A stretch of 64,000 bases of DNA from Coraliomargarita sp. (GTDB lineage Bacteria; Verrucomicrobiota; Verrucomicrobiia; Opitutales; Coraliomargaritaceae). This document shows positions 10,794-28,189 of this stretch, in pieces. How positions within the stretch are numbered: position 1 is the stretch's first letter; each line of letters opens with the position of its first letter. Where the stretch lies: assembly GCA_965216325.1 (NCBI GenBank), contig OZ244160.1, positions 1,600,001 to 1,664,000 of the forward strand. The letters run 5' to 3'. The notes below the pieces were generated by a model. That model saw only the letters and a program-made list of their open reading frames with translations. It made no database searches and had not been told where the DNA came from. The position numbers were made by a program, and so were the translations under genes.

Positions 10794-11408
10794 ATGCTAG
10801 AGACACTTTGCGAACAATTCGCTGCACTGAGTTGGGTGCAATGGCTCGGCTTTGCAACGGGTGTCACTGGTGTTTACCTTAGCATCAAAGAGCGGCTCCT
10901 CGCATGGCCGCTGTTTATCCTTTGCTACAGTTGCTACGTCTATCTGAGCTACCAATACGGGCTCAAATCATTCATGCTGATGAATACGATCTTCATCGGC
11001 ATCTCAATCTACGGCTGGCAAAAATGGGCACGCGGACAACATGCAGGCCAAGGTGATGACATCCCGGTTAGCCATGTGCGCAAACCACACTTACTGATCG
11101 CACTAGCACTCATAGTAGTCGGCACTGTGGGCCTAGGGAGCCTCTTTCAGAAAACAGGCGAAGCTGCGATGCCTTACCTCGACTCGTTTGCCACCTGTTG
11201 CGGCTTCATCGCCCAATGGCTCCTCAGCCGCAAACACGTCGAGACATGGATCGCATGGATCATCACCGACTGCGTATACATCTACCTACTCGCAAAACAA
11301 GGTGCTCTCACGGATGTGCTGCTATTCACCATCTTTATTATACTAGCCCTCAAAGGCTGGAAAGAGTGGCGAGCACCAATACGACAAGCGCAAACCCAAA
11401 CAGCATAA
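10794..11408 (+). CDS. pnuC: Nicotinamide riboside transporter PnuC
   Basis: Hydrophobic protein with YGWQKW, PYLDS and AQWLLSRKHVETWIAWI. Confidence 0.88.
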   Translation: MLETLCEQFAALSWVQWLGFATGVTGVYLSIKERLLAWPLFILCYSCYVYLSYQYGLKSFMLMNTIFIGISIYGWQKWARGQHAGQGDDIPVSHVRKPHLLIALALIVVGTVGLGSLFQKTGEAAMPYLDSFATCCGFIAQWLLSRKHVETWIAWIITDCVYIYLLAKQGALTDVLLFTIFIILALKGWKEWRAPIRQAQTQTA

Positions 11409-11411
11409 AAC

Positions 11412-11924
11412 ATGAGGCGGATCGTGCTAACAGGTGCTGAATCAACCGGCAAGAGCACCGCAGCAAAAGCCCTGGCCGAACACTATTCAGCTCCGCTCAG
11501 CTCCGAGTTCGTCCGCAGTTACGTCGATCAATTGAATCGTGAACTTACTGCAGACGACCTAGTCCCCATCGCCGAGGGACAACTCGCGCTGGAGTCGGAC
11601 GCAGCAGCCAAAGCAACAAGCACCGTCTTTCACGACACCAACATCCTCTCCTCGGTCATCTATGCGGAGCACTACTTCAACAAGTCGGTAGATCTCGCCG
11701 ACCAAGCACTCGCAAACAACCCCTACACCCTCTACCTGCTCTGCGACACGGACATCCCATGGATCGCAGACGATGGACAACGCGAAAGCCCAGAAACTCG
11801 AGACCTGCTACAAGTGCGCTTTCGACAAGAACTGGAGAAACGCAAACTCTGCTACATTACGCTTAGTGGATCAATCGAAGATCGACTTGCAAAAGCAATC
11901 GATGCGATCGATAGGCTCACTTAG
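11412..11924 (+). CDS. NadR-type ribosylnicotinamide kinase / AAA_28 ATPase
   Basis: GAESTGKST P-loop, EFVRSY, HDT and DIPWIADDGQRE; directly after pnuC. Confidence 0.8.
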   Translation: MRRIVLTGAESTGKSTAAKALAEHYSAPLSSEFVRSYVDQLNRELTADDLVPIAEGQLALESDAAAKATSTVFHDTNILSSVIYAEHYFNKSVDLADQALANNPYTLYLLCDTDIPWIADDGQRESPETRDLLQVRFRQELEKRKLCYITLSGSIEDRLAKAIDAIDRLT

Positions 11925-11952
11925 CACTGAGCGTATTCACACTTCAAATACG

Positions 11953-12579
11953 TTATTTCGCAGCAAGCAATGCTGCAATAATCGCTAAGAGTACAAACAG
12001 CACGACCCCAAACGGACGTATTTTATTGATCGACTTCAAGGTGACTTCCTCAGGGACCTTCTTGGCAAACAAGCCAGCCAAAAAGGCCAATTGCCCCCAC
12101 CAATAGATAATTCCAACCAAGCCTCCAACAATCGCCCAAGCAACCGTTTCATAGCTCTGCGGGTGGTTGACGAATACCATAGCTGCCAAAACCAAGGACA
12201 TCGCCAAGGGCAAACGCATGGGCATTGCCAGTGAGCGAACAAAAGCATTTTGAAACAGCACTCCAGCGGAAGGCAACTCGCTCGCATCGCTGAGTGAAAC
12301 AGCCTTAGGCGTGCGCAAGAACTTATACGCTAGGTAGCCTAAATTACCGGCAGCAAAGAGATACATCAATGGCCGTATCGGATGCAAATTAGTCAGCATC
12401 ACACGCAAGCCAGCAACCGCCACGCACATCCAAATTAGGTTCGACAAGGCAAAGCCACTAGAGACCGCAAGCACCTGACGCGCTGAACCACAAACACCGA
12501 CTTTCGCAACCCAGACAGTCCCGGGGAAAAGAGTCAGAGATAAAATACACCCAGCTGCGATGCCTTCCAAAAGTATCAT
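11953..12579 (-). CDS. LysE-like membrane transporter (divergent)
   Basis: About 6 TM segments, N-terminal G..AG..LS...PG; 208 aa. Confidence 0.55.
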   Translation of the reverse strand: MILLEGIAAGCILSLTLFPGTVWVAKVGVCGSARQVLAVSSGFALSNLIWMCVAVAGLRVMLTNLHPIRPLMYLFAAGNLGYLAYKFLRTPKAVSLSDASELPSAGVLFQNAFVRSLAMPMRLPLAMSLVLAAMVFVNHPQSYETVAWAIVGGLVGIIYWWGQLAFLAGLFAKKVPEEVTLKSINKIRPFGVVLFVLLAIIAALLAAK

Positions 12580-12588
12580 TACCTTTAC

Positions 12589-13764
12589 TTATATGCGCTG
12601 AACTCGACGGTTCCAACCTACAAAATTAACAAACATCAAAAGCCCCGCAAACAAACACCATCCAAGAGCCGAAAAAGCGCCGAGACCAAACCACACAACA
12701 ACCGCCCAGCCACAAACACATAGCCCACCCCCCAGAACCAGTGCCCTGACTTCAGACTGGTAGCGCCCAATCAAAGCAAGCGGATATAATGGGGTCGAAA
12801 ACAAGATCGCAGCCAGATCAGACTGCAACCACAAGCCACAGCCAACGGCGATCGCAACCGAGGCAACAACCAACAGCCCAACCCATCGCTGAGCAGACTT
12901 AGCGGCCTCAGGTCCGACACTATCCACATCCGATGAGACAATCGCCCAAACGCGCAAATGGATCCAGCGCACAGCCAACAACAGGAAGATCAGCAATGGC
13001 AACTGCCACAGCGCCGATATATCTGCATCAGCAGAATAATCAACTAAGCCAACAGTGACAACAGAGAGTAAGCCCAAAACCGGCAAGCTATCGTAATGCA
13101 ACAGACGAAGCCTCCAAGATCGCAACACAGGAATCGCAAAATGACTGCCTCCGACAGTAAAACTTAGGGCCACAAATAGCAGCGATAAGAGCGCAAATAT
13201 ATTGGCATATGGCGATAGGTCATCACTGAACCAATTCGGAATTGCCAACAACACTGCATTGACCGCAAAAACAGCAGACAGCAGGACACGCCAAGTAAGT
13301 AAAGACCATTGAGCAACCAAACCGGAGGAGGCATCGCTCAAGGCGTAGCCAAAGGCATGCAAGCGCGTCGCAAGCGATGGCAAATCAAAGCCCTCTCCAT
13401 TCCATTTCAGAGCGAGTCGGTTTTCTTGTAGACTCACACGCGCATGCTGCACACCGGGCATCGCACGTGAAATACGCTCAACCAACCAGACACAGCCCAA
13501 GCATGACATCCCATCCACACGCAGTGTCAGCTCAGAATCCGCACGTCCCGCATCAGCTTGCAGGCGCTTCAACTTAGCCAAATCCTTCGCCTTTCCAAGC
13601 GCATCACCCACCGGCCGGCCCACCCGATCCTGCAGGGCGTAATAATCATCAAGATCCTCAGCACGAATCAACTCATACACTTGCCGACAGCCCGAACAGC
13701 AGAAAGCCCCGTCTCCAGTCCCCTCTTTGTAAGGTGTTGCGCAATGCTGACAGGTATGCTTCAT
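12589..13764 (-). CDS. CcoI/FixI-like metal-binding membrane protein lacking ATPase catalytic domains
   Basis: N-terminal CQHC..FCCSGC..VYELI domain, HMA motif GMSCLGC, then only TM helices; no TGE, DKTGT or GDGxND. Confidence 0.7.
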   Translation of the reverse strand: MKHTCQHCATPYKEGTGDGAFCCSGCRQVYELIRAEDLDDYYALQDRVGRPVGDALGKAKDLAKLKRLQADAGRADSELTLRVDGMSCLGCVWLVERISRAMPGVQHARVSLQENRLALKWNGEGFDLPSLATRLHAFGYALSDASSGLVAQWSLLTWRVLLSAVFAVNAVLLAIPNWFSDDLSPYANIFALLSLLFVALSFTVGGSHFAIPVLRSWRLRLLHYDSLPVLGLLSVVTVGLVDYSADADISALWQLPLLIFLLLAVRWIHLRVWAIVSSDVDSVGPEAAKSAQRWVGLLVVASVAIAVGCGLWLQSDLAAILFSTPLYPLALIGRYQSEVRALVLGGGLCVCGWAVVVWFGLGAFSALGWCLFAGLLMFVNFVGWNRRVQRI

Positions 13765-13831
13765 GTAAAATTTATTTCAGAGATGTAAATACGCGTTGCA
13801 AAGTGGCAGCGCCAGATTTTCTTAAGATCAC

Positions 13832-14278
13832 ATGCAAGAATCCTTATATCAGCTAGTCTATATGAGCGCCGCAGCCCCGGAGCTTACTAAAGATGCGCTG
13901 ATTGACATTCTTGCCGCCGCCCAGAAAAACAACGCTAAACGCGGCATTACGGGTTTATTGCTGCATTCCGACGGCAACGTAATTCAAGTTATTGAAGGCC
14001 AGAAAGAAGACGTCGAGGCACTCTACAGCAAAATTGAGAACGACAGTCGCCACGAAAACCCGATGGTGCTTTATCGTAAAGCCATTACCGAGCGCGACTT
14101 TCCTGAGTTCAAAATGGGCTTCCGAACCGCCAAGCTCTCCGAACTCGAAGCCAACTTCCCCGCCTTCACTGACTTGGTCCAAAAGCGCCAACTCCCCAAA
14201 GAGACCATGGATAAGATCTCCAAGCGGGCTGCGACTTTTCTGCGCACCTTCGCGCGCACGACCCGATTGGAAAACTAA
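13832..14278 (+). CDS. BLUF domain blue-light sensor
   Basis: LVYMS, NNAKRGITGLL, IQVIEG, IENDSRH and FPEFKMGF. Confidence 0.92.
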   Translation: MQESLYQLVYMSAAAPELTKDALIDILAAAQKNNAKRGITGLLLHSDGNVIQVIEGQKEDVEALYSKIENDSRHENPMVLYRKAITERDFPEFKMGFRTAKLSELEANFPAFTDLVQKRQLPKETMDKISKRAATFLRTFARTTRLEN

Positions 14279-14428
14279 ATGCCGACAGGTAGCCGCTACT
14301 GGACCCGACGACTACAGCACACCAGCTACCTGATTTCCAAATCCAAAAAAGTTCTAATAAAACCACTCCTCACACGTTGTTCATGTGAAACCGCTTGGTA
14401 GCGCTGCCAGGCATCACCTCAAATCACA

Positions 14429-14950
14429 ATGAAAGATGAACAACCCAGCACCGATTCAGAGTGGATGCACTCCATGGTGGAAACCCATGCGGCTGACCTT
14501 ACCCGCTATGCCGCATCCATCCTTGGCAATGCCGAAAGCGCCAAAGATGTTGTCCAAGACAGCTTCATTCGCCTATGGCGCGAACCCCGCGAGAAAGTCA
14601 AAGGGCACGTGCGCCCTTGGCTTTTTAAAGTATGCCGCAACCGCGCATTTGACCTGCGCCGGAAGGGAGGCCGCATGAAACCGCTCAACGAAGTCATGGT
14701 CGCAACGACCGCAAGCGACGAACGCAACCCCGAAGAAGCCACCGAGCAACGCGACAACCAAGCGCAAGTCCTCGGCCTCATGCAGCAGCTCCCCGAGAAC
14801 CAACGAGAAGTCGTGCGGCTCAAATTCCAGAACGGGCTCAGCTACAAAGAAATCGCCTCCGTCACCGAACTATCGGTTAGCAACGTAGGCTTTTTGCTCC
14901 ACACCGCGATCCAGACCCTGCGCGCACAAGTCGCTGCCTCGGGCGAGTAA
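14429..14950 (+). CDS. ECF sigma-70 factor
   Basis: [25 protein letters not shown] and [23 protein letters not shown]. Confidence 0.92.
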
Positions 14951-14967
14951 CCAAAGGAGACCATACC

Positions 14968-17253
14968 ATGAAACTTTTACCAGATGATCCAAAATTAACC
15001 GCCTACGCGCTCGGCGAAATCGACGACGAACACGAGCGCAAGACAATCCAACAAGCCATCCAGCAAGATCCAGCCCTCCAGGCTGAAGTTGAAAATATAC
15101 GGAGTTTCAGCCAGCTGCTCAGCGACGAGTTGAGGTCTGAAACCAGCCCCGAGCTGAGCGAATTCGAAAAAGCACAGCTACAGCAAGAGCCCACCCCTGA
15201 GCCACAAATGGCCAATCGGCGCATACGACTCGCATGGCCTGTGATTACAGGGATTGCGGCTATCTTAGCTCTAATGCTCTACCTGAACACGTCACATGTA
15301 GAGCATATCCAATACGAAATGGCTTTTCGTGACAGCGACGCAGATGAAGTCCACGAAGAAGTTCACTACCGTATGCTAGAGGTAGAGATACCAGCCGAAG
15401 TCATCGAAGGCACACCACAGCCGATCAAAGTGCCCGGCTTGGAACCCGAAGCTACGCAAGCACCACGATTAATCGTTGCCGAAAGCAAGCCTTACAAAGC
15501 TGAGCGTATGGCCGAGATCGGCAGAGATCAGCCCGCCCCTAGTGCACCCGCAAGCATACCAAGTCAGACTTCAGTCTTAGCGAAAGGCAAAATCAGCGGC
15601 ATGCAGTCAAGCGCAGCCACAGGCGTGAATAACATTCAAGTTGCCGATGTGCCTGTCGTCTCGGCGGACATGGAAGATTCCTTTACGCTCACCGCGGGGC
15701 TTGGTGGTGTGGGCAACAATCAACCCCTAGGTGGAGCAAGAGGCAGTCTTAGCATGATCGAACCAGCAGCCGTGGCCTGCTTCATGCCACCTCCAACCGC
15801 CGAGCCAACGCCTCGCACAGAATGGAACACCGAGAAATACGATCCCATCGAAGAATCTGACTTCCGTTCGCCCTTCGTTGCGCCACTTTCGACCTTCTCA
15901 ATCGATGTCGACACCGCGAGCTACGCCAACGTGCGCCGCTTCCTCAATCAGGGGCAACTGCCGCCCGCTGATGCCGTTCGCATCGAAGAGCTCATCAACT
16001 ACTTCCCCTACAACGATGCGGCTCCAACGGAATCGCTCAAGGAAGGTGGCGATCCGTTTGCCGTTCACATGGCGCAGACCACTGCGCCGTGGAACGACCA
16101 ACACCATCTGCTACGCATCGCCCTCAAAGGCTACGAGATGCCTTGGGAAGAGCGCCCAGCCTCCAACCTCGTCTTCCTGCTCGACGTATCCGGCTCCATG
16201 AACAGCCAGAATAAGCTACCCCTGGTCAAGGACGCCATGAACATGTTGGTGCAACGCCTCGACCAGCGTGACCGTGTTGCCATCGTCGTCTACGCAGGCG
16301 CATCCGGACTGGCATTACCGTCGACTACCGCGAACAACGGCAAGACGATCGAACATGCGATCAATCAACTCGAATCCGGAGGCTCCACGAACGCCGGCGA
16401 AGGCATCGCCCTCGCCTACAAAGTTGCTCGAGAGAACTTCATCGAAGGCGGCAACAACCGCGTCATCCTCTGCACCGACGGAGACTTCAACGTCGGCCAA
16501 ACGAATCGAGGCGACCTCGCAAAGATCGCAGAGGCACAGGCTGAACAAGGCACCTCACTAACCATACTCGGATTCGGCATGGGCAACTACAAAGACGACA
16601 TGCTCGAGACACTCTCCAACAAGGGCAAAGGCAGCTACGCCTACGTCGACTCACGCAAGGAGGCTCGCAAGGTATTCCTCGAAGACCTCACCAGCAATCT
16701 GTTCAAGATCGCCAAAGACGTAAAAATACAAGTCGAATTCAACCCAGCACAAGTGTCTGCCTATCGACTTATCGGATATGAAAATCGACGCCTCAAAGCA
16801 GAGGACTTCAATAACGACCAAAAGAAGGCTGGCGACATTGGCCCCGGACACTCCATCGTTGCACTCTACGAACTCATTCCAAGCGACGTATCCATCGCAC
16901 TGCCTGAAGTCGACGCACTTCGCTACCAGCAGCATGCCAAGCCAGAGCAGCTTGATAGTGAAGTCGCCACGGTCAAACTGCGCTATAAGCAACCGGATGA
17001 AACAGTCAGTCAACTGATTCAAAAGGCCGTCCACACTACTGAGCTTACTGAAATCGACGCTGCAAATGACGACTTCCGATTCAGCGCAGCAGTCGCAGCA
17101 TTTGGTCTACGCCTCAGAGAATCAGAATCGATTGGAGACTACAGCTACGCAGAGATTGACCGCTTAGCAGCCTCCGCACTCGCCAAAGATTCCGGCGGCC
17201 ACCGCAGTGAATTCTTGGAATTGGTCCACCAAGCGAAGCAGCTGTCCCAATAG
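14968..17253 (+). CDS. Membrane-anchored VWA-domain protein (YfbK-like), putative anti-sigma partner
   Basis: N-terminal LTAYALGE anti-sigma-like helix, one [33 protein letters not shown] and YRLIGYENR. Confidence 0.85.
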
Positions 17254-17276
17254 CTCAAAATCTCCTCGAGTTCAAC

Positions 17277-17365
17277 GGTAGCGCAGCTGCGGCTCGCAGC
17301 GCACTGTATCATCTCTGGTAAATCCACACCTAAGCGCATGCGGTGCCAGAGGCACCTGCGCTACC
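17277..17365. repeat. REP-like doublet (GTAG ends)
   Basis: GGTAGCGCAG...CTGCGCTACC terminal inverted repeat with internal hairpins (GGTGCCAGAGGCACC). Confidence 0.7.
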
Positions 17366-17399
17366 CACTCATGGCAACTTAGCAAGGGTCTGTCTTTGT

Positions 17400-17505
17400 T
17401 GGAACCACCCAGTCCCGCTCCGCGATTCACCTCTCCTCACCAAAGAGCTAAAAGCTCCTCCCCTGAGAAGGGGAGGTCACCTGCTTGCCAGGTGAGAGGG
17501 GTCTC
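17400..17505. repeat. Palindromic element with CCTCCCCT-GAGA-AGGGGAGG hairpin
   Basis: Hairpins CCTCCCCTgagaAGGGGAGG and TCACCTG...CAGGTGA between convergent genes. Confidence 0.55.
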
Positions 17506-17513
17506 CCCGAAGG

Positions 17514-20500
17514 CTAGACCAGATCAAAACGCTCGATGCCCTTGCGCACGTCCGACAAGAACGCTGCGGCCCCCACACCATTCACCCAACGGTGGTCAAA
17601 GGTCAGCACCAAGGAAACCACTTCCATCGTCCCACCCTCTTTAGACTTCGGATCCGGCAGGGTAAACGGCGCGCCAATAAACAAGGTCGCCACCGAAGGT
17701 GGCACCACAACTGGTATCGCCGAGCGCACATTGTAGGCGCCCATACTTGAAATCGACAAGGAAACGCGATTCTTGGAGACAATCTCACCATGACGTGTAT
17801 CGCGTAGCGACTTATTGAATACATCAGGAAACTCACTCCACTCCAAAGCATTCGCATTTTGCACGACTGCAGTTTCAAGAACATCACCAGGCAAGGCGAC
17901 CGCAACCCCAAGATCGAGGCGCTCCGAATCGTGCATCAGCTGTCCGCCTCGAATGTAGGACGCGAAGCGCTCATGCTTCTTCATCGCCTGCACCACAGCC
18001 CATGCAGTCATCGTGGCAGTCGAGAGCGTGCCACCGGGTGTCTTTTTACTACGCAGCCGTGCATCGCGCACGGCTTCCCAACGGCAGGTCATATCAATCG
18101 TTGCCGGCACAATCCCTTCAAGCTGCTTAATCGCCTCCATAGAAAGACCAGCAGCCTTCTTTAAGGTATTATACGCCTGTGCCTCCTCAGGCTCAGCGAC
18201 TTTAATCGTTGCCGGCTCAGCCTTACGGCTCAGACGAAGCACCACAAGGTCCTGACCAACATTCACCTCATCGTCTTCGGCGACGTTCCACGACTCGAGA
18301 ATGCCGTCCTCATCACTCTCAATCGGGAAGACGGCCTTATCGGTTTCAACTTCACAAAGTGCATCATCGGCCTTCACCTCGTCGCCGACTTGCTTGAGCA
18401 CCGAAACCACACGCGCCACTCGAATGCCTTCGCCAAGAATCGGCACAGTGATCACCTTGGTCGACTCTTCGAGACTGGGATTATCTTCAGACATATCAGT
18501 AGGCGGTAAATCAGTTATTTGTGGTGATGGTGCAACAGAGCACTCGACATCCAATTGCAAAGCACTCTCTAAAGTAGCCGAGAGTAAACGCTCGATCGCT
18601 GCAGACACTCGCTCCTTATCCGGCAACGCGGCATATTCGTAAATCGGGTTAAAGCCGACATGCACATCTTCCTTCGACACGATGATTGGCGACGCCTTCA
18701 AGGCCTGCAACACAGCTTGATCGGAACACAGCTCTGCAACAATCATTTGCCCGACACTCGCAGAAATGTTATCTTCCTGCACAATGATCAAGCGGCCGGT
18801 CTTCTGCACCGAAGCCGCAATGGCCTCACGGTCCCATGGAGCAATCGAACGCAAGTCTATCAACTCAACATCAAGCTCAGCCGACATGCCCTCAAGCGTT
18901 TCCTCGACAAGCTCAATACAATTACCCCAAGTCACCAAGGTCAGCAACTCACCCTCGCGTACCATACGTGCTTTACCGAGCGGCACAGCTGCCGCAGGCT
19001 CTGCGACCTTCTGATCAGCCCACATCAAATGCTTGGGCAACAGAATAATCGTCGGATCCTCTCCGTGCAGTGCAGTCCAGAAAAGCCCTGCTGTATCTTG
19101 CGGAGTCGATGGCACCACCACGCGAATACCCGGCACACGTGCAAATGAGGCCTCACCCGCTTGACTGTGCCATAGCGCACCGCCAGGCAAGTAACCACCA
19201 CAGGGCGCATAAATCACCAAGGGGCACTTCCAATGGCCAAAGCTACGCCAGCGCAAGGTAGCCATATTCGAGACCAGCTGATTCCAACCAGGATAAATAA
19301 AGTCAACAAACTGGATCTCAAAACACGGCCGCTTACCATAGGATGCCAAGCCAACCGAAACCCCCATAATCGTGGACTCTGCCAAGGGTGAGTTCACCGC
19401 ACGCGAGGGATCTTTCGTGGATAGACCTTTAGTCAAGTTGAAGACGCCACCCTTAGGATCCGCAATGTCTTCTCCGAAGAAGACGACGTCGCTCAATTCA
19501 TCCATTGCAGCATGGAAGGTCTTGTTGACCGCATCAAGCATGCGACAAGACTCGCCTAATTCGATGCGAGTGTCGCTCGGGCTAGGTTCATCACCTACTA
19601 AATGTAAGGTGCTCTCATCGGCTCGTGGATCTTCGGAAGTGCTTACTTCACGATATGCCGCACGAATCTCTTCACGTAGCGCCTCTTCGCCAGCCGTCGC
19701 TTCCTCACGACTGAGCACACCTTCTTCGATCAAACGGTTTTGGTAAATGGTAATCGGATCACGCTCATGCATTGACTCCAATTCGTCAACGGAGCGATAC
19801 ATACGTTGATCGTCTGCACTCGAGTGATTGGAGAAACGCTCCACGTCACACCAGATAAAAGCAGGACCTTTTCCAGAGCGCGCATGCTCAACAGCAACTC
19901 GACCAGCTTCGGCGACTGCCTCAACGTCACTGCCATCAACACGTACCCACTCATCGCGGTTAAAGACATTCAACGCGAGTGGATTCGTCCGCTGAGTCGA
20001 TGTGCTAATTGCAATTCGGTTATCCTCTACAACAAAAACCATCGGCAAGTTCCGCTCCTTGGCGAAGCAAATGGCTTCATAAAAATCACCTTGACGCGTT
20101 GCTGCCTCACCAATCGAAGCATAGACAATATTCTGCTTACCGTCTAATTGCATGCCCCATGCTGCGCCACAAGCAGGCAACATATGCACGCCCACGGGTG
20201 AGGGATGACTCCAGATGTTCAGCTCACGATCACTAAAGTGCCCCGTTAACTGACGCCCACCACTGGACGAATCACGCTTTGCATAAAAAGCTAGAGCAAG
20301 GTCACGATCGGTTAAGCCGCGTTGTAAGCAAAAGGCCCGATCCCGATAATATGGAAAGGCATAATCATCCGGCTCCATATGTAAGGCGATCGCAGCGAGT
20401 GCCTCGTGGCCCATGCCCGAAATATGAAACCAGCCCTTTCCCTGACGAATCAAGCTCTGCTCACGAAGATCACCAATACGGCTGCGCCACAGCGTGTTTA

Positions 20501-20561
20501 AGAGGGATTTACGTGACGCAGCATCGAGCAGCGCCTTCGCGGATGGATCTGAATTAGGCAT
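17514..20561 (-). CDS. Fused 2-oxoacid dehydrogenase: E1-alpha + E1-beta + lipoyl domain + E2 acyltransferase core
   Basis: GHEA, YYRD, GEAA..GDFYE..N (TPP site) and HSSADD; FGEDI..GGVF, PLAE and EIQF; EVETDKA (lipoyl Lys); SSMG and TFDHRWVNG. Confidence 0.9.
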
Positions 20562-20651
20562 TGATAGTTTGTCGTGACAGGCCGGTTACATGCCTTACTC
20601 GCTCTGATAAAACGCGGGCTCTCGGCAACGAGCAAGGCTGAACAACAGCTT

Positions 20652-20735
<84 letters not shown>

Positions 20736-20953
20736 GCCTACACCCTAGCAAATAAGATCTACTTATCAAGACATATTATTGTAAAAGAATTTCTTATGAT
20801 AAAAACTACGAAAGAGGGTAAGTTCCTCTAATAGGCTACATTCCTCAGCATTCGTAAGGGGTTACGTGGACGGCACATGAAAATAACATAAAACCACTTG
20901 CAACCACACTGCTTTCCTTGCGCTTCCGAGAGGAACAATCACAGTCTAACAGC

Positions 20954-21328
20954 ATGCAACATCGTGAAGAATTCCGTCCAGGAGCCACTATCATCAAACA
21001 AGGCGATGAGGGAGTTGGCTTTTACATTCTCGAGAAAGGCTCAGTCGAGGTCTACAAGGACGACATTAAGCTCAACGTCTTGATGTTTCCCGGCACGATT
21101 TTCGGCGAAATGGGCAACATCACCAATAAACCGCGCACCTGCACGGTGAAAGCGCGTACTCCGACCGTCGTGACCCGCTATGAAGCAGCAGGCATGGACG
21201 AGATTATCCGCGAATATCCCGACATTGCACTCCGCATCTTCATGACACTCGCCAGCCGACTAGAGCGAACCACACAGAAGCTGGCGGATCTCTCGCAAGC
21301 CGCATTGTTGATCTCCGAAGAAGAATAG
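20954..21328 (+). CDS. Stand-alone cyclic nucleotide-binding domain protein
   Basis: IIKQGDEG..FYILEKGSVEV and FGEM..PRTCTV; ATG at 20954. Confidence 0.87.
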   Translation: MQHREEFRPGATIIKQGDEGVGFYILEKGSVEVYKDDIKLNVLMFPGTIFGEMGNITNKPRTCTVKARTPTVVTRYEAAGMDEIIREYPDIALRIFMTLASRLERTTQKLADLSQAALLISEEE

Positions 21329-21383
21329 CTCCAGCCACTTGCAAAGCTGTAAGTGCACGGCAGTTTCCTGCGTTATATTTCGC

Positions 21384-21890
21384 ATGATCAAATTCACACT
21401 CGCTGTTCTCTTTCTTACCTGCACAGGCACGCTCTTCGCCAAAGGCCTCGCCGTCGGCGCAGCAGCGCCTCAAGTCACCGCGCTTGATCAAGACGGCAAC
21501 GAAGTTGACCTTGGCAAAGTCCTCAGCGAAGGCACCACAGTTGTCTTTTTCTACCCCAAAGCCGATACGCCCGGCTGCACCAAACAAGCTTGCAGCCTCG
21601 GCGAAGGATTCATGGACCTTAAACTCCGAGGCGTAAACGTCTACGGCGTATCAGGCGACAGCGCCAAGGCACAAGCGAAATTCAAAGAGAAGTATTCGCT
21701 TCCTTACCCACTGATTGCCGACAGCGAACTCAAAGTGAGTGAAGCCTTCAGCAAGAGCCGCTGGGCACGCCAAGCTTACATCTTTAATGACGGCAAAGTT
21801 GCCTGGGCAGACCATAAAGCCGCGACAGCCAAGCAATTCGAGGAAGTCATCGCAGCGCTCGACGAACTTGGTATCGCTCCCAAGTCATAA
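21384..21890 (+). CDS. Peroxiredoxin (BCP/PrxQ) with signal peptide
   Basis: FFYPKADTPGCTKQAC. Confidence 0.88.
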   Translation: MIKFTLAVLFLTCTGTLFAKGLAVGAAAPQVTALDQDGNEVDLGKVLSEGTTVVFFYPKADTPGCTKQACSLGEGFMDLKLRGVNVYGVSGDSAKAQAKFKEKYSLPYPLIADSELKVSEAFSKSRWARQAYIFNDGKVAWADHKAATAKQFEEVIAALDELGIAPKS

Positions 21891-21895
21891 GGCAC

Positions 21896-22966
21896 TTACA
21901 GACGAGTAAAACTACCTGTCGCCACCTTCCAAACGGCCCACTCGTCCACCAGCTCCGGCAACTCGGTGCCAGTGGCAATGATCTGCAGCTCAGCCGGGCA
22001 GGCGCGCCAAAAGCCAGCTTTGCGATGCGGGTCGAGCTCACCAAGCACATCGTCCGCCAATAACACCGGCGCAACACCTAAGCTCTGCTGAAAAATTTGC
22101 GCTTGTGCGATCCGCAGCGCGACACAAAGCCCCCGCTGCTGCCCGTCAGAGGCGTATTCCTTCGCACCGCCAATATCCAGCAAGAGCGTATAGTCATCAC
22201 GGTGCGGCCCTTTCTGCGTCGAACCAACAATTTGATCACGCTTACGATTACGCGCCAGCAAGTCCCGCACGGCGTCGGCATCCTCAGCCTGCACGCTTAG
22301 CTTGAAATCCAACGCAGGACCCTCGTCCTTTTCCGCGATATCCGAATACACTGAAGTCAACACGGCACGGAGTCGCTCGATTCCAGCGAGACGTTTCTGA
22401 TTCACCATTAATAGATGCGGAGCGATCTCCGCCTCAAACGCAGCAAACTCAGCATCCGTCCCGCCCCTCTTCAGTAGACGATTTCGCTCTGCCACACCCC
22501 GATGATACAAACGCAAGGCGTGATAGTAATCCTTATCAATTGCCGACAAGGTCAGATCCAGGAAACGACGACGCTCCGCGGGGGAACCGCGCAAAATCAT
22601 TAAATCCCCCGCACTGAGAGGCACTACTGGAAATCGCCCAATAAAGTCACCAAGCCGAGACATTTTCTCCCCATCCAGTAGCACACGACGTCCATCAGAA
22701 CCGGAACGCACTTCTAATTCGCAGCCCCCCTGCAGGTCATGCTCGATCGAATAGACCGCCGCAAAGCCCGCGCTCCCCTGCCGCGGCAGTGCTCCCATGT
22801 TTTGTGTGCGAAATGAGCGAAGCGCTGTCACTAACCCCAAAGCCTCGAGCATATTCGATTTCCCCTGCCCATTTCGGCCGAGCAGAAAGCTTCGCCGCGC
22901 ACTCAAGTCGAGCTCGGCAAATTCAACATTCCGAAAATCCTGCAAGCGGATAGTTTGAAAACGCAT
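21896..22966 (-). CDS. recF: DNA replication/repair protein RecF
   Basis: FRN, GRNGQGKSN, SFRT, GSPAERRRFLD, GPHRDD, SDGQQR and DDVLGELD. Confidence 0.95.
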   Translation of the reverse strand: MRFQTIRLQDFRNVEFAELDLSARRSFLLGRNGQGKSNMLEALGLVTALRSFRTQNMGALPRQGSAGFAAVYSIEHDLQGGCELEVRSGSDGRRVLLDGEKMSRLGDFIGRFPVVPLSAGDLMILRGSPAERRRFLDLTLSAIDKDYYHALRLYHRGVAERNRLLKRGGTDAEFAAFEAEIAPHLLMVNQKRLAGIERLRAVLTSVYSDIAEKDEGPALDFKLSVQAEDADAVRDLLARNRKRDQIVGSTQKGPHRDDYTLLLDIGGAKEYASDGQQRGLCVALRIAQAQIFQQSLGVAPVLLADDVLGELDPHRKAGFWRACPAELQIIATGTELPELVDEWAVWKVATGSFTRL

Positions 22967-22974
22967 ACAGTTCC

Positions 22975-24150
22975 CTAAATCGAAATCACTGTTGAGTCAG
23001 AGCGATCAGCCTCCGCCTTCAACTCGTCATAAACCGTCCGAATCGCTGCAGCCAAGTCCATCCAATCCTGTACCTGCAGCTCTGGCCCCGCACTCATGCG
23101 TAATGAACGACGCATCGACGCCGCTTCATAACCCATCGCCGCCAGCACATGTGATGGACCGTCCTTCCCCGTTGAACAAGCCGAGCCAGCCGAAACGAGG
23201 AAGCCACGCTTCTCCAGACCACGTATCCAGCGCACGCTGCCAAACTCAGGGGCAATCAGCATTGCAGTATTCCACAAGCGCTCAGCTCCCCCGCCCACCA
23301 ACTCAAATTCAGGCAAAGCGGCAACAAATCGGTCACGCCCCTCTGTAGAGCCGGTGGGAGTCCCGACTTTAGCCGGATTCAAATCAGACTGTGGGCCCCA
23401 AAAAGGCCTAAACCCAGCCCTTAACGCCGCTACCATTGCCAAAGCACTGGCGACATCCTCAGTCCCCGCGCGATGCGATGACTCCTGCCCTCCACCACGC
23501 AGCGAAACAAAGCTACTCGATGCATCCGGCAATAAGCACGCACCCACACCTCGAGGCCCACCAAACTTATGTCCACATAAAGTGACAAAACTACAGCACT
23601 TCAGCTCCTGAAGCGGCATTTTCCCCACCCATTGCGACGCATCACAATGATAGGGAACCCCGGCCTGACTTGCCTTCGTGGCGATCAACTGCCACGGATT
23701 CAGCACACCGGTTTCATTATTGGCCGCCATCACCGAGATCGCGGCAACTTGATCAAAGGGAATGGCATCGACATCAACTGCACCCTGCGCATCGAGTTCC
23801 AACCATAGAATACGGCCCGCGAACCAGTGTGTCGCCGCCTCGATGACACTCGGATGCTCAGTGGGACTAACACCGACCTTAGCACCGGCAGGCAAGCGAC
23901 CTGCCCAGTGCGCAAAGACCGCGTTGTTACCCTCAGTCGCACCAGAGTTGAACACCACACGGGCGGGCTCGACCTCAAATGCGGCGGCGAGCTGCTCGCG
24001 CGCTTGATCCAAATGGACTTTCACCCGCGCAGCTGCACGGTATGGACTCGACGGGTTCAACCACAACTCACTAGCCGCATGTAGCCATGCTGCTTTCGCA
24101 TCAGCGCAAAGCGGCGTCGTGGCATTATAATCGAAAAAGCGGGTATTCAC
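22975..24150 (-). CDS. Cysteine desulfurase (IscS/NifS family) with a REP-derived segment
   Basis: DYNATTP, NPSS, SGATEGNN, ANNETG, GHKFGGPRG, RAGTE and SAGSAC. Confidence 0.92.
   Translation of the reverse strand: MNTRFFDYNATTPLCADAKAAWLHAASELWLNPSSPYRAAARVKVHLDQAREQLAAAFEVEPARVVFNSGATEGNNAVFAHWAGRLPAGAKVGVSPTEHPSVIEAATHWFAGRILWLELDAQGAVDVDAIPFDQVAAISVMAANNETGVLNPWQLIATKASQAGVPYHCDASQWVGKMPLQELKCCSFVTLCGHKFGGPRGVGACLLPDASSSFVSLRGGGQESSHRAGTEDVASALAMVAALRAGFRPFWGPQSDLNPAKVGTPTGSTEGRDRFVAALPEFELVGGGAERLWNTAMLIAPEFGSVRWIRGLEKRGFLVSAGSACSTGKDGPSHVLAAMGYEAASMRRSLRMSAGPELQVQDWMDLAAAIRTVYDELKAEADRSDSTVISI
23354..23380. repeat. REP-like unit inside the cysteine desulfurase gene
   Basis: GTGGGAGTCCCGACTTTAGCCGGATTC matches the intergenic GTCGGGGTCCCGCCTTTAGGCGGATTC (39918-39944) at 23 of 27 positions. 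Confidence 0.75.
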
Positions 24151-24161
24151 GCCCGGATAAC

Positions 24162-24959
24162 TTATGGGATACGCAGCTCCTGACCAACCCGCAGCGCATT
24201 TTCACTGGAGAGGCGGTCACGATTCGCTTGGTAAATATCAATCCAGCGCGATGGCGTGCCATAGAATTTGCGACTGATCGTGCTGAGCGAATCACCGGAC
24301 TGCACGGTATAACTGCGTGGCACCGATTCCGGCGCGGGGCTAGCCTGTGGGGCTGGCGCAGGCGCTGCTGTCACCGTAGTTGTTGGAGCCGGACGAGTCT
24401 GCTGAAGTGGTGCGATCTGAGTAGTCTGCACTGGTGCCGGCCGGCGCGCGTCTCCCAACATGGATTCCAACTGGCGAACACGCTTCTGTGACTCCACCAG
24501 CTCGCGCTTCATGCTCTCATTCTCTTTACGCAAGTTGTTGATCAGTTCCATCAAATCGAGTCGATCCAGCTCACCGGAATACGGCTGCGCCGGCAACTGA
24601 CGGGCGAATTCCTTCTGCGCGGTTTCAATCAGCTGACGCACCTGCGGTGCCTGATCCGACTGCGGGTTGAACTCCAAGTAGCGGTTAAAGTGATAGATCG
24701 CACGCACGGGATCCTTCATCTCACGCAAATAGATGTACCCCGCCTCTAGGTGTGACTCAGGCGCATCTCGGCGCGCATCAATTACACCGAGAAAAGCCGT
24801 CAACGCGTCTGAAGTCCGGCCTTGATCCTTGTAATGCTTGGCACGCTGATACTGCTTTTCGTCCGTTTCACTCACCACTTCAACAGAGCTCGGGGCACAG
24901 GCCGAGAGCACAAACAGGCAGAGGAGTGAAAGAGAGGTGAGGCTACGGAGCGGTCGCAT
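24162..24959 (-). CDS. TPR + coiled-coil + LysM lipoprotein
   Basis: LSAC lipobox, TPR-like helices and YTVQSGDSLSTISRKFYG...IYQANR. Confidence 0.88.
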   Translation of the reverse strand: MRPLRSLTSLSLLCLFVLSACAPSSVEVVSETDEKQYQRAKHYKDQGRTSDALTAFLGVIDARRDAPESHLEAGYIYLREMKDPVRAIYHFNRYLEFNPQSDQAPQVRQLIETAQKEFARQLPAQPYSGELDRLDLMELINNLRKENESMKRELVESQKRVRQLESMLGDARRPAPVQTTQIAPLQQTRPAPTTTVTAAPAPAPQASPAPESVPRSYTVQSGDSLSTISRKFYGTPSRWIDIYQANRDRLSSENALRVGQELRIP

Positions 24960-25031
24960 GTGTCAAATAAAGGTCAATTGTGCGCACAGGTTTAAGCATC
25001 CCCGCACAACAATCAACCCCCAAGAACAACA

Positions 25032-26012
25032 CTAGGGACGCAGCAGAATCTTGCCCAAGCGTGGTTGCTTGTCGTGCGCAAAGGCTTCCGCGTATTGATC
25101 GAACGAATACGTCGCCTCAATCGGCAACCTCAGGCTCCCGTCTTTCATCATGCCATAGACTGCATCCATGACCTGACGTAGCCCATCCGGGCCTGCCTGC
25201 TTGCTCCATTTATCCCACCAAAAACCAACGAGACGCACATCATTAAAAATCAAGAAACGCGTCGGGAAGCGCACCGGATCCCCGACCATCCCACCAAAAG
25301 TGACCTGAGTGCCACCTTCGCCGAGCGCCTTAATCTGGTCACTGGCGCTTTCGCCACCAATCGAATTGAGCGCCAAACGAATCGGTTCACCACCAGTTAA
25401 CTCCTTGGCAGTCTTCGCCCAGCCGCTCCCTTCGATCACCACCTCATCGGCGCCAAGCACCTTGAGCGGTTCGATCAGCTCTTCACGACGCACTTGATTG
25501 ATGGTTTTAAAGCCGAGCGCCTTGGCCATCTGAATGACGGATAGGCCCACCGCCGAGTTACCGGCATTCTGCACCACCCAGCTACCCTTAGGCAGATCAA
25601 CGATCTTGCTGAGCAAGCAATACGCAGTCGGCGGATTGATAAACGAAATCGCGGTCTGCTCGACCGGTAATTCCGAAGGCACCTGCAACAAATCCTTGGC
25701 TGGAATACAGGCGTATTCCTGCCATGTCCCCTCCTCGGGAAAACGCACGTGAGCCCCAACACCGACATTAAACACACCTGAGCCAAGCGCATCAACCTGA
25801 CCAACTCCCTCACGCCCGGCAACCGCTGGCAACTCCCGCAGACGGCCGTAGCTGCCGCCAATCATTCCGTAGTCCGACGGATTGATCGCCGCCGCAAGCA
25901 GTTTCACCCGCACCTCGCCAGGCCCAGGCTCGGGCTTGCCGACGGTCTCGACCTTGAGGACCTCTTGAGGCTTTCCAAAACTGTGGTGGCGAATCGCTTT
26001 TTGTTGGCTCAT
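25032..26012 (-). CDS. MDR-family 2-enoyl thioester reductase (MECR/Etr1-like)
   Basis: AAAINPSD..I.G.YG, GREGVG, INPPTAY and QNAGNSAVG; start placed at ATG 26012. Confidence 0.8.
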   Translation of the reverse strand: MSQQKAIRHHSFGKPQEVLKVETVGKPEPGPGEVRVKLLAAAINPSDYGMIGGSYGRLRELPAVAGREGVGQVDALGSGVFNVGVGAHVRFPEEGTWQEYACIPAKDLLQVPSELPVEQTAISFINPPTAYCLLSKIVDLPKGSWVVQNAGNSAVGLSVIQMAKALGFKTINQVRREELIEPLKVLGADEVVIEGSGWAKTAKELTGGEPIRLALNSIGGESASDQIKALGEGGTQVTFGGMVGDPVRFPTRFLIFNDVRLVGFWWDKWSKQAGPDGLRQVMDAVYGMMKDGSLRLPIEATYSFDQYAEAFAHDKQPRLGKILLRP

Positions 26013-26155
26013 AAGCGTGGCACATTGCCCAAAAGCGCCTGTCTCGCAAAGCAGATTCAACATTTTCGCCCACAGAAATAAGCATCCGTGGTTGCTTCCA
26101 TCAGTAACAAGGCACTAATCACCTTCACACTTTTCCACTTTTCACCTTCACACCC

Positions 26156-28189
26156 ATGACCCATCCATTCCTCACTGACGACTTCCACATCCGCTGGTCG
26201 ACCCTGACCCCTGACGCAATTGAGCCAGACATCAGTAAGGCACTAGCCGATGCCCAAGCAGCTGTGGATGCCGTAGCCGCCCTGAGCGATACCGATACTG
26301 AACTGACTTACACGAACACCATCGCAGCACTCGACGATGGACTCGACACGCTCAATCGCGCCTGGGGCCTCGTCAACCACCTCGACTCGGTCAGCAACAG
26401 CCCCGAACTCCGCGAGCCCTTCAACAAAATGCTGCCAGCGGTCTCTGAGTTCTTCGCAGCCATCCCGCTCAACGAACAACTGTGGAAGACCCTCAAGGCA
26501 TTCGGCAGCAGCGAAGCCGTGCTCGAGCTCTCTGCCACCAAGCAGCGCTACGTGCATGAGACCATGGCGGACTTCCGCGAAGCCGGCGCCGACTTGCCAC
26601 CTGAGCAGAAGCAGCGCGCAGCCGAAGTACAAAAGCGCCTCGCAGAACTCACCCAGAAATACTCCGAGAACTGCCTCGATGCCACCAACGCTTGGGAAAA
26701 GCTCATCACCGACGAGTCCGAACTCACCGGCCTTCCAAAGTCCGCCCTTGCCGCCGCCAAGCAAAGCGCCGCGCAAAAGGACAAGGAGGGCTGGCGTTTC
26801 ACACTGCAGGCCCCGTCCTACATTCCGGTCATGACTTACGCCGACAACGATGCTCTGCGCGAAGAAGTCTGGAAGGCCTACGGCGCAATCGGCCGCGAGG
26901 GCGAGACCGACAACCGCGAACTCGTCCGCGAAATCCTCGACCTGCGCCACGAATTTGCCCAGCTCGTCGGCCAAGCAAACTTTGCCGACCACGTCACCGA
27001 GCGCCGTATGGCGGCCTCCGGTGATGCCGCACTGCAATTTGGCGAGACCATATTCAGCCGCGTGCGCGAGGCCTTCGAAAACGAAGTCCAGCAGCTGCGC
27101 AACTTCAAGAGTGCCGACCTGCTTGAGCCATGGGAAGTCGGCTACTGGGCCGAGAAACAACGCCTTGCCAACTACGACTTCGACGAAGAGGCCCTGCGCC
27201 CCTACTTCCCGATCGACCGCGTCATCAGCGGTATGTATGACATCGCCCAACAGCTGTTTGACCTGCGTATCGAAGAGCGCAGCGACGTCGAGACTTGGCA
27301 CGAGGAGGTCAAATTTTACGACCTGTTCGACAGCGAAAGCGGCGAAGTGCTCGGCGGATTCTATGCGGATTGGCATCCACGCGAGTCCAAGCGCGGCGGC
27401 GCATGGATGAACTACCTAATCACAGGCAACCGCGATGCATCTCTAGGCGAGCGCACGCCACACCTCGGCCTGATCTGCGGCAACCTCACTCCTTCCGTCG
27501 GCGATACGCCTGCGCTGCTCACCCACCGTGAGGTCGAAACCATCTTCCACGAATTCGGCCACTTACTCCATCACCTCTGCGGCGAAGTCGAAGTAAAGTC
27601 ACTAAATGGTGTCAACGTACCGTGGGACTTTGTCGAACTTCCCTCACAGATCATGGAAAACTGGTGCTGGGATCGCGAGAGCCTCGATCTGTTTGCCCGC
27701 CACCACGAAACTGGCGAGCCAATCCCACAGGAGTTATTCGACAAGATGTTGGCTGCTCGCAACTACATGAAAGCCAGCGCCAACGTGCGCCAGCTTTCCT
27801 TCGGGAAAATGGACCTGGAACTGCACATCAACTGGCCAAAGTCAGCCAAGGGCGACCTCGACAGCTTCATCAAGCAGGTGCTCGACGGCTACACACCGGA
27901 ATACAAGACCGAGCCGAAGAGCAACGTCTTCAATTTCAGCCACCTCTTCAGCAGCCCAACCGGCTACGCGGCGGGCTACTACAGCTATAAATGGGCCGAG
28001 GTACTGGACGCCGATGCATTCACCCGCTTCCAAAAAGAAGGGATCCTCAACGCCGAGACCGGTCGCGACTTCCGCGCCAAGATCCTCGCCAAGGGCAACT
28101 CGGAAGATCCCGCCAAGCTGTTCAAAGACTTCATGGGGCGCAGCCCGGATCCCGACGCGCTCCTGCGCCGCGACGGCCTACTCAACTAA
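26156..28189 (+). CDS. prlC: M3 oligopeptidase A
   Basis: KRGGAWM, FHEFGHLLH (HExxH), DFVELPSQIMENW and YAAGYYSYKWAEVL. Confidence 0.93.
   Translation: MTHPFLTDDFHIRWSTLTPDAIEPDISKALADAQAAVDAVAALSDTDTELTYTNTIAALDDGLDTLNRAWGLVNHLDSVSNSPELREPFNKMLPAVSEFFAAIPLNEQLWKTLKAFGSSEAVLELSATKQRYVHETMADFREAGADLPPEQKQRAAEVQKRLAELTQKYSENCLDATNAWEKLITDESELTGLPKSALAAAKQSAAQKDKEGWRFTLQAPSYIPVMTYADNDALREEVWKAYGAIGREGETDNRELVREILDLRHEFAQLVGQANFADHVTERRMAASGDAALQFGETIFSRVREAFENEVQQLRNFKSADLLEPWEVGYWAEKQRLANYDFDEEALRPYFPIDRVISGMYDIAQQLFDLRIEERSDVETWHEEVKFYDLFDSESGEVLGGFYADWHPRESKRGGAWMNYLITGNRDASLGERTPHLGLICGNLTPSVGDTPALLTHREVETIFHEFGHLLHHLCGEVEVKSLNGVNVPWDFVELPSQIMENWCWDRESLDLFARHHETGEPIPQELFDKMLAARNYMKASANVRQLSFGKMDLELHINWPKSAKGDLDSFIKQVLDGYTPEYKTEPKSNVFNFSHLFSSPTGYAAGYYSYKWAEVLDADAFTRFQKEGILNAETGRDFRAKILAKGNSEDPAKLFKDFMGRSPDPDALLRRDGLLN

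Follow-up and report, generated by a model that had tools for sequence, protein, structure and literature searches.

How a 2-oxoacid dehydrogenase might operate when its catalytic parts are joined in one polypeptide and its docking domain is missing is a question raised by a gene of a marine bacterium, Coraliomargarita sp. (Verrucomicrobiota). The gene lies in a 64,000-nt stretch of contig OZ244160.1 (positions 1,600,001 to 1,664,000; assembly GCA_965216325.1), which we refer to as the window, and it encodes a protein of 1,015 amino acids (aa). Enzymes of this kind are textbook examples of large multienzyme assemblies, in which an E2 core docks the E1 and E3 components through a peripheral subunit-binding domain (PSBD). 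The window protein combines E1-alpha, E1-beta, a lipoyl domain, and an E2 core, and it has no recognizable PSBD. Our analysis indicates that this arrangement of a textbook enzyme is genuine and conserved and has apparently escaped study. The protein is most likely an uncharacterized, lineage-wide branched-chain-type 2-oxoacid dehydrogenase that uses E3 in trans.

Domain content and the missing docking domain

Pfam assigned five domains to a single open reading frame (ORF), which bears out an earlier note, made from the DNA letters, that had read the gene as E1-alpha, E1-beta, lipoyl domain, and E2 in one chain. The stretches singled out in that note (ETDKA, DHRWVNG, and MSEDN) all occur in the translation. 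The catalytic equipment is complete, and the modules follow the canonical order of catalysis (Table 1). Within the E1-alpha part, we found a G151-E152...D180-N181 stretch together with an HSSADD...YR loop. We aligned 71 sequences, whose members are 32 to 78% identical to the window protein. In this alignment, G151, D180, and N181 of the thiamine diphosphate (ThDP) motif and His246 of the HSSADD loop are invariant, as are E739 and K742 (71/71) in the lipoyl domain and D989, H990, and G995 in the E2 core. Arg991, Asn994, and Phe1012 are shared by at least 90% of the sequences. Judging from its conserved motif, Lys742 is predicted to be lipoylated.

Asn994 occupies a position where many E2s have Asp. 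There is a precedent for Asn four residues past the His in the E2p of Azotobacter: the title of PDB entry 1dpb names Ser558, His610, and Asn614. An ISSMG stretch of the window protein is aligned with ITNIG of the E2p of Corynebacterium glutamicum (HMMER alignment to 6zzl). Among the Opitutaceae-type copies, DHK replaces DHR in the E2 motif of L044, L055, L056, L057, L067, L069, L071, and L072.

The PSBD profile PF02817 (E3_binding) had no match at E ≤ 0.01 in the 1,015-aa protein, and the same profile detected the PSBDs of the host's two ordinary E2 genes (69.2 and 53.2 bits). Since the structure model likewise shows no additional folded element at the usual place of a PSBD, the absence of this domain that had been noted earlier stands. 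We rejected a PSBD hidden in the linkers because the Pfam search was negative with a working control and both linkers are disordered in the model. The statement that no E3 gene is nearby also held, with none among the 15 flanking ORFs that we scanned. Elsewhere, the host genome encodes two dihydrolipoyl dehydrogenases above the cutoff (588.7 and 533.5 bits versus 408.8), along with a third related flavoprotein that scores below the lipoamide-dehydrogenase cutoff and two matches to the BPL_LplA_LipB family. In the glycine cleavage system, E3 serves the lipoylated H-protein by transient contact, so a docking domain is in principle not strictly needed. Because the window protein has no PSBD, it would engage E3 in a similar way, by transient encounter.

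Table 1. Coordinates of the gene, its parts, and related genes (window positions unless a genome or locus is named; G000 is the host genome)
Feature	Position	Strand	Evidence or remarks
Whole ORF	17514..20561	minus	1015 aa + stop, ATG start
E1-alpha, ThDP-binding domain, residues 28-312	19626..20480	minus	Pfam E1_dh, 1.8e-58
E1-beta pyrimidine-binding domain, residues 341-512	19026..19541	minus	Pfam Transket_pyr, 1.3e-29
E1-beta C-terminal domain, residues 529-651	18609..18977	minus	Pfam Transketolase_C, 4e-19
Linker 1, residues 667-698	18468..18563	minus	AlphaFold pLDDT <50; length and sequence variable in alignment A1
Lipoyl domain, residues 703-775	18237..18455	minus	Pfam Biotin_lipoyl, 5.1e-17
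Linker 2, residues 780-806 (PSBD site of canonical E2)	18144..18224	minus	pLDDT <50, no helix pair
E2 acyltransferase core, residues 793-1013	17523..18185	minus	Pfam 2-oxoacid_dh, 3.6e-26
Codon of lipoyl-lysine Lys742 (ETDKA)	18336-18338	minus	
Codon of catalytic His990 (DHRWVNG)	17592-17594	minus	
E3 genes, host genome	G000:C1:2557403-2558812 and 322722-324119		
Stand-alone lipoyl-E2 genes, Planctomycetota	L083:5950-7329 and L089:5951-7138		Biotin_lipoyl + 2-oxoacid_dh (Pfam)
KAS III-form ORFs, other classes of the phylum	L104:894-4394, L105:235-4386, L106:515-3937	minus, plus, plus	three of three long ORFs fetched

Distribution of the fused and split forms

We surveyed 401 genomes of the phylum, the host included. 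In 37 of these, residues ~1 to 1014 were matched in one stop-free frame: 23 of the 26 genomes in the family of the window, 12 genomes from four further families of its order, and 2 from one further family of its class. Another nine genomes, all from one family (f3), were matched only to residue ~790. Their E2 cores lie in the same open frame after a longer linker and were recovered by a hidden Markov model (HMM) built from alignment A3 (9/9, E-values of 1e-94 to 1e-106). The single frame was thus found in 46 of the 401 sampled genomes, and the same layout extends across the lineage.

Public records agree with this picture. The same five Pfam families were carried by all 120 of the word-indexed matches listed (74 to 99% identity, 989 to 1,060 aa), whose sources include Coraliomargarita, Lentimonas, Puniceicoccaceae, and Opitutae. 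Within the Opitutales, single-frame records are named for Puniceicoccaceae, Coraliomargarita, Lentimonas, Thalassobacterium, Opitutaceae, Lacunisphaera, Opitutus, Oleiharenicola, and Didemnitutus, and the single frame occurs likewise in metagenome-assembled genomes (MAGs) of Chthoniobacterales/Spartobacteria. Complete single frames were recovered in 58 of 80 fetched loci; most of the rest are truncated at contig ends or were left unresolved by our script. The homologues carry names such as "thiamine pyrophosphate-dependent enzyme," "2-oxoisovalerate dehydrogenase E1 component," "2-oxo acid dehydrogenase subunit E2," and "hypothetical." One record titled as a Polaribacter sp. MAG (L034) contains a fusion copy that is 73% identical and, in the tree, branches inside the Puniceicoccaceae clade; the contig was probably mis-binned and does not represent a gene of Bacteroidota.

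The Planctomycetota encode the same parts as two genes. In 9 of 10 planctomycete loci (Pirellulaceae, Planctomycetaceae, Aureliella, and Pirellula; ~50 to 54% identity), the E1-alpha-beta frame ends at 663 to 720 residues, and the tenth locus (L085) was not resolved by our script. In the two loci that we read in detail (L083 and L089), a separate lipoyl-E2 gene of 459 or 395 aa begins 3 to 5 nt later, and neither product has a PSBD (PF02817 at E ≤ 0.001). The split falls exactly in the linker ahead of the lipoyl domain. The earlier note had named a stop codon at this place as grounds against a single-chain enzyme. Such a stop was seen only in another phylum, the Planctomycetota, whereas close relatives of the window protein keep the single frame. 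The split form shows that an E2 lacking the PSBD also exists outside the fused lineage, and it does not make the fusion spurious.

We then placed the E1 part in a tree of 92 rows (IQ-TREE in quick mode, LG+G4). The verrucomicrobial fused sequences formed one clade of 66 rows (SH-aLRT of 99). Their sister group (SH-aLRT of 86) consisted of the split Planctomycetota (10 rows) and of Armatimonadota that carry E1-alpha-beta only (3 rows). This topology fits a single fusion at the base of the verrucomicrobial clade, with a direction of change that depends on rooting the tree with distant, long-branched relatives.

Candidate substrate and competing explanations

The host genome, one contig of 3.06 Mb that is 99.98% complete, holds exactly three E2 cores and three clear E1 genes, which belong to a pyruvate dehydrogenase (PDH) set, a 2-oxoglutarate dehydrogenase (OGDH) set, and the fusion. 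The PDH set contains an E1-alpha above the curated cutoff, an ORF assigned to E1-beta by position only, and an E2 with a PSBD; the OGDH set contains E1o, SucB, and Lpd. This inventory supports the presence of a third 2-oxoacid dehydrogenase complex. Classically, when a third complex has an E1 of the heterotetrameric type, it is the branched-chain complex.

The impression that the E1 is branched-chain-like, first recorded in the earlier note, gained support from structure and from gene context. The best solved match for both E1 halves was the 2-oxo acid dehydrogenase of Thermus thermophilus (1um9). Its A chain matched the E1-alpha part with 145.9 bits in an alignment that covers the G-[DE]-x...N Mg-ThDP motif and shares the HSSADD loop, and its B chain matched residues 340 to 644 with 211.9 bits. 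Relatives of the gene adjoin genes for the catabolism of branched or short acyl-CoAs. A member of one ORF cluster (enoyl-CoA hydratase and/or 3-hydroxyacyl-CoA dehydrogenase, judged from three scanned members) lies within ~4 kb in 22 of 81 loci, and a member of another (carboxyltransferases, judged from two scanned members) is present in 12 of the 81. In Opitutaceae-type loci, a FadB-like hydratase/3-hydroxyacyl-CoA dehydrogenase is encoded directly upstream on the same strand, while the Chthoniobacterales loci carry hydratase and carboxyltransferase genes downstream. Thiolase, 3-hydroxyacyl-CoA dehydrogenase, and carboxyltransferase genes occur in planctomycete loci, with the thiolase following the gene pair in one of them (L089). 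Because the host has PDH and OGDH sets as well as two E3 genes, and because relatives adjoin acyl-CoA genes, we favor a branched-chain-type enzyme supplied with E3 in trans. We think it probable, if well short of certain, that the gene encodes a self-contained E1+E2 unit of the heterotetrameric-E1 class, acting most likely on branched-chain 2-oxoacids.

Such an enzyme might work as follows. The fused E1-alpha/E1-beta part would pair with that of a second chain, which would create the usual two ThDP sites. E1 would decarboxylate the 2-oxoacid and reductively acylate the lipoyl group on Lys742. Held by disordered tethers of 32 and 27 residues, the lipoyl domain would then ferry the acyl group to the E2 core, where trimers with His990 at the subunit interface would transfer it to CoA. 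The reduced lipoyl group would be re-oxidized by free dihydrolipoyl dehydrogenase encoded elsewhere. The acyl-CoA product may enter the genome's only beta-oxidation set, serve as a primer for branched fatty acids, or do both. One host cluster encodes an acyl-CoA dehydrogenase, a FadB-like enzyme, a thiolase, and an AMP-binding enzyme.

Our confidence in the branched-chain assignment is kept moderate by low NCBIfam scores, by bit scores that do not separate enzyme types, by unrelated neighbors, and by gaps in host pathways, all of which weigh against it. All 25 of the NCBIfam models listed fell below their cutoffs; the best were a PDH E1-alpha model (201.6 versus 411.35) and a PDH E1-beta model (194.8 versus 454). 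As no cutoff was reached, the protein is not an equivalog of any named complex. The bit scores of the E1-alpha part fail to separate structures of PDH (Geobacillus, 113.7; human, 112) from those of branched-chain 2-oxoacid dehydrogenase (BCKDH; Pseudomonas putida, 102; human, 88.8). The 15 neighboring ORFs in the window (10794-28189, 7 to 8 kb on either side) encode VWA/YfbK, an ECF sigma factor, BLUF, a cyclic nucleotide monophosphate (cNMP)-binding protein, AhpC, and others, and they give no functional hint. The host genome has only one acyl-CoA dehydrogenase, and the single full-length carboxyltransferase is part of a methylmalonyl-CoA/propionate cluster, so a complete leucine pathway was not found with the queries used. 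A search with PF01039 did not find methylcrotonyl-CoA carboxylase in the host genome; its other two matches are partial (169 and 195 of 493 profile positions) and are presumably acetyl-CoA carboxylase subunits. Finally, the nearest relatives outside the family join the same E1-lipoyl unit to KAS III, acyl carrier protein (ACP), or thioesterase. Since relatives attach other acceptors, CoA as the acceptor is not guaranteed.

The cluster with the full-length carboxyltransferase (G000:C1:2357040-2367172, equivalent to 2040-12172 of L094) also encodes two methylmalonyl-CoA mutase subunits, the OAD_beta subunit of a Na+ pump, and an acetyl-CoA hydrolase/transferase. Its content resembles a pathway from succinate to propionate. 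No B12 mutase was found among 10 ORFs further out than the FadB-like gene and the fusion in five Opitutaceae-type loci (L044, L056, L058, L066, and L071). Five of these ORFs lacked a Pfam match, and the rest encode a pseudouridine synthase, an AMP-binding enzyme, a GFO/IDH/MocA oxidoreductase, and a DNA methylase.

The same machine could instead act on another 2-oxoacid, such as pyruvate, 2-oxobutyrate, 2-oxoadipate, or an aromatic or sulfur-containing compound. This is the alternative that survives best, and we regard it as rather unlikely. The best NCBIfam matches are PDH-type E1 models, albeit all far below cutoff, the E1-alpha part scores slightly higher against the Geobacillus and human PDH structures than against the P. 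putida and human BCKDH structures, and the context in the window is uninformative. However, the host already has a PDH set, whose E1-alpha exceeds the curated cutoff, as well as an OGDH set; 1um9 is the top solved match for both E1 halves; and the gene adjoins hydratase, 3-hydroxyacyl-CoA dehydrogenase, thiolase, and carboxyltransferase genes in relatives.

The closest characterized layouts are QncN/QncL and OdhA, with QncL the nearest, and the Qnc system suggests a more distant alternative. QncN/QncL/QncM is a ThDP-lipoyl-ACP system of quinocarcin-type biosynthesis in Streptomyces melanovinaceus, grouped here with SclQ1-4 of scleric acid. By the description in the portion of PMC6335953 consulted, to which our comparison is confined, QncL unites an E1-beta-like part, a lipoyl domain, and an acyltransferase on one chain, as does the window protein (PMC6335953). 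The ThDP-binding, E1-alpha-like subunit is a separate protein, QncN, and is fused in the window protein. The acceptor in the Qnc system is an ACP (QncM), the proposed substrate is a ketose phosphate, and the genes belong to a natural-product cluster, according to the same part of that source. The earlier note was right that the window protein differs from plain alpha-beta fusions and from OdhA, but it missed QncL. By analogy, the E2-like domain of the window protein could be a loader that passes an acyl group from the lipoyl domain to a carrier protein or other thiol, priming lipid or natural-product synthesis.

Domain variation among more distant relatives bears on this idea. We scanned 37 relatives from an exhaustive search of representatives: 12 end in an E2 core, 16 in KAS III, and 1 in a thioesterase; 6 have no recognized C-terminal domain, and 2 lack the lipoyl domain. 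On this domain content, the E1-alpha-beta/lipoyl unit turns out to be a mobile cassette, which appears to be a modular way to load units derived from 2-oxoacids. The KAS III fusions, which are uncharacterized, share the E1-alpha-beta and lipoyl unit (32 to 39% identity) and have a FabH-like ketosynthase in place of the E2 core. Their layout suggests that the acyl group may pass from the lipoyl domain straight to the ketosynthase. The two KAS III fusions in our tree (P0148 and P0156) fall outside the clade of the window protein.

Several of these variants were seen in individual records. Besides the ORFs in other classes of the phylum (Table 1), the KAS III form was seen in the metagenome proteins P0148, P0156, and P0159-P0174. 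Further variants (P0129, 1,227 aa; P0213, 2,895 aa; P0185, 1,942 aa; P0153, 1,091 aa) include the forms E1-lipoyl-E2-ACP, the head of a KS/MT/C/A megasynthase, KAS III with KR and ACP, and thioesterase. In P0218 (1,196 aa), E1-alpha-beta is fused to CHASE2 and adenylate/guanylate cyclase domains, and the ORF could be either a genuine sensor fusion or a chimera of gene calling.

Beyond the precedent of QncL, the loader idea draws on the 2 of 12 E2-core relatives that continue into an ACP or a polyketide synthase (PKS)/nonribosomal peptide synthetase (NRPS) line (P0129 and P0213) and on the KAS III domain that replaces the E2 core in 16 of the 37. We nevertheless consider it improbable for the window protein. 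The 15 ORFs scanned in the window include no ACP, PKS, NRPS, or KAS III gene, and there was none among the ORFs scanned beside 80 related loci. Moreover, in the verrucomicrobial clade the gene resembles a housekeeping gene, being single-copy and occurring in 23 of 26 family genomes, and the context in relatives is acyl-CoA catabolism.

That the gene is an artefact or decaying, either mis-assembled or a recent read-through of two genes of which only pieces function, is very improbable and already contradicted: the two-gene form of the Planctomycetota and an ATG (Met690) in the very linker where that form is split would speak for it, but the contigs of four of four public runs are free of insertions and deletions, an independent metagenome contig crosses the whole ORF, and the listed homologues with all five domains, the complete frames in fetched loci, and the well-supported fused clade described above stand against it. 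Over window positions 17300-20800, contigs of all four runs differed from the window by substitutions only. The metagenome contig (X5; 10,525 nt) covers 17476-20799 with 29 substitutions and no gaps, and a contig of an isolate run (X2) is identical to the window over 17376-19631, which includes the E1-beta/lipoyl/E2 junction. The frame is thus intact across the linker that the earlier note had marked for a check of the reads. Contigs of an RNA library (X11) lie on 17595-19206, 19313-19464, and 19794-20603 and cross linker 1 at 18442-18630; contigs prove neither transcription nor transcript ends, DNA may be present in this library, and the uncovered stretches are not informative. We rejected frameshift and mis-assembly on the basis of these indel-free runs and of the five-domain frame conserved in relatives. 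Met690 (MSEDN), the ATG at 18492-18494, lies inside disordered linker 1. Among the 11 other sequences of alignment A1, only P0074 (78% identity) has a Met in this linker, and a second start at Met690 has no support, as the Met is not conserved in A1 past this closest relative.

Twelve nucleotides downstream of the stop codon is a ~52-nt repeat with two GC-rich hairpins (17450-17502), which an RNA fold also shows. It returned 27 BLAST rows in the 3.06-Mb genome, its own copy counted, and several runs have a depth spike and many contig ends there. The repeat looks like a REP-like intergenic element or a terminator, a flank feature outside the enzyme. Beyond the 3' end of the gene, on the opposite strand, positions 13832-17253 encode a BLUF blue-light sensor, an ECF sigma factor, and a 761-aa VWA/YfbK protein; the other flank has the gene of a small cNMP-binding protein (20918-21328). 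None of these has an evident link to the dehydrogenase.

Assembly and relation to known complexes

An AlphaFold model of the full chain, built with the 71-sequence alignment, had a mean predicted local distance difference test score (pLDDT) of 88.2 and a predicted template modeling score (pTM) of 0.73. Its only long low-confidence stretches (667-698 and 780-806) flank the lipoyl domain; short ones occur at 1-3 and 458-462. A model of the E2 core by itself reached a pLDDT of 92 and resembled solved E2 cores (Foldseek TMq of 0.77 to 0.84), the top match being 3mae, a Listeria chain deposited as 2-oxoisovalerate dehydrogenase E2. Foldseek did not separate E2p, E2o, and E2b types, all of which fell within this TMq range. 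A trimer of the E2 core was predicted with a score of 0.91 versus 0.02 for the best control, a pass that rests on likeness to solved E2 trimers, and the His region lies in the interface. The three trimer runs shared 95% or more of their contacts (counted on the smaller set), with a partner pLDDT of at least 87. The mark used for this prediction is reached by 20 of 30 solved pairs and by 1 of 23 single chains.

These models bear on whether 2-fold E1 and 3-fold E2 symmetries in one chain require a non-standard assembly, as had been proposed in the earlier note. In that form, the proposal was not supported. Because both linkers that flank the lipoyl domain (32 and 27 residues) are disordered, an E1 pair and an E2 trimer would be mechanically uncoupled, and a conventional core also fits. 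Mammalian BCKDH complex has 24 E2 to 12 E1 heterotetramers, and the 1:1 ratio of E1(alpha-beta) to E2 in the window protein would suit a conventional cubic core carrying its full complement of E1 pairs. The chain may form an exotic assembly but does not need to.

Compared with heterotetrameric-E1 complexes (e.g., 1um9 and 3mae), the window protein shares all four catalytic and carrier modules and their chemical order. The ThDP motif, the lipoyl-Lys, and the E2 His are common to both, as are the E2 fold (TMq of ~0.8) and the trimer, which is predicted for the window protein. In contrast, those complexes use three chains instead of one, with separate subunits, a PSBD, and an E3 in or near the operon, none of which is found with the window protein. 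Since it has no PSBD, its E1 would be held covalently and its E3 used without a docking site. It further differs in its one lipoyl domain tethered at both ends, its short C-terminal tail of five residues, and its scores far below curated family cutoffs. In NF008854-type PDH E1-beta, a lipoyl domain is likewise joined to an E1 subunit; this model of 464 positions, the PDH E1-beta model named above, matches residues 304 to 659. In these alphaproteobacterial proteins, the lipoyl domain precedes E1-beta and E2 is a separate protein with a PSBD.

Like the window protein, the actinobacterial E2o-E1o enzyme OdhA/KGD carries E1 and E2 activities on one polypeptide, as described in the portion of PMC10415282 consulted. 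There, the E2 domain of OdhA is N-terminal, its E1 is of the homodimeric E1o type, and it has no lipoyl domain, using the lipoyl groups of E2p instead. The window protein has E1 ahead of E2, an alpha-beta-type E1, and a lipoyl domain of its own. It scored 51.6 bits against the OdhA model NF008907 (cutoff, 878), and the E2 domain of OdhA is a structural match to its E2 core (8p5r and 8p5t; TMq of 0.77 to 0.81). According to the same part of PMC10415282, OdhA closes into a D3 homohexamer that reconciles the 2-fold and 3-fold units. Part of a second source (bioRxiv 10.1101/2020.07.24.212647) states that E2 cores of higher order require a hydrophobic 3-10 helix at the C terminus. In our model, helix 995-1010 is followed by five residues only. 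By HMMER, 4 residues of the window protein extend past the last aligned column, compared with 6 in fungal E2p constructs and 9 in the C. glutamicum construct. From the modeled C terminus, a reduced particle, smaller than a conventional core, is plausible.

A broader and more tentative reading, which we consider possible but rather doubtful as a whole, would unite these observations. Under it, Verrucomicrobiota and Planctomycetota would have in common a separate class of 2-oxoacid dehydrogenase in which a PSBD is never employed. Covalent attachment would hold E1 in Verrucomicrobiota, and some other contact would do so in Planctomycetota; E3 would act only by transient collision as in the glycine cleavage system, and the short-tailed E2 would stop at trimers. 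The fused chain would then form small closed particles, in which E2 trimers are bridged by E1 dimers (OdhA-like hexamers), instead of 24-mers or 60-mers. If true, such a particle would be a minimal, genetically one-piece complex.

We found no paper on a single-chain E1-alpha-beta/lipoyl/E2 protein or on its KAS III variant in a search that left subscription journals and supplements outside its scope. In the parts of PMC10415282 and bioRxiv 10.1101/2020.07.24.212647 consulted, departures from the plan of an E2 core with PSBD docking are described for actinobacteria only. Where public records carry E1 or generic names for this gene, genomes that encode it could be scored as lacking the E2 of a third complex. 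A one-gene dehydrogenase that forms acyl-CoA could also be a handy part for metabolic engineering. The finding means that E1, the swinging arm, and E2 come as one chain without a docking domain across a whole lineage, and that planctomycete relatives keep a PSBD-less E2 even where the genes are split. With one recombinant protein, it becomes testable how much scaffolding substrate channeling requires at a minimum, how E3 is engaged without a PSBD, and what particle is built from 2-fold and 3-fold modules on flexible tethers.

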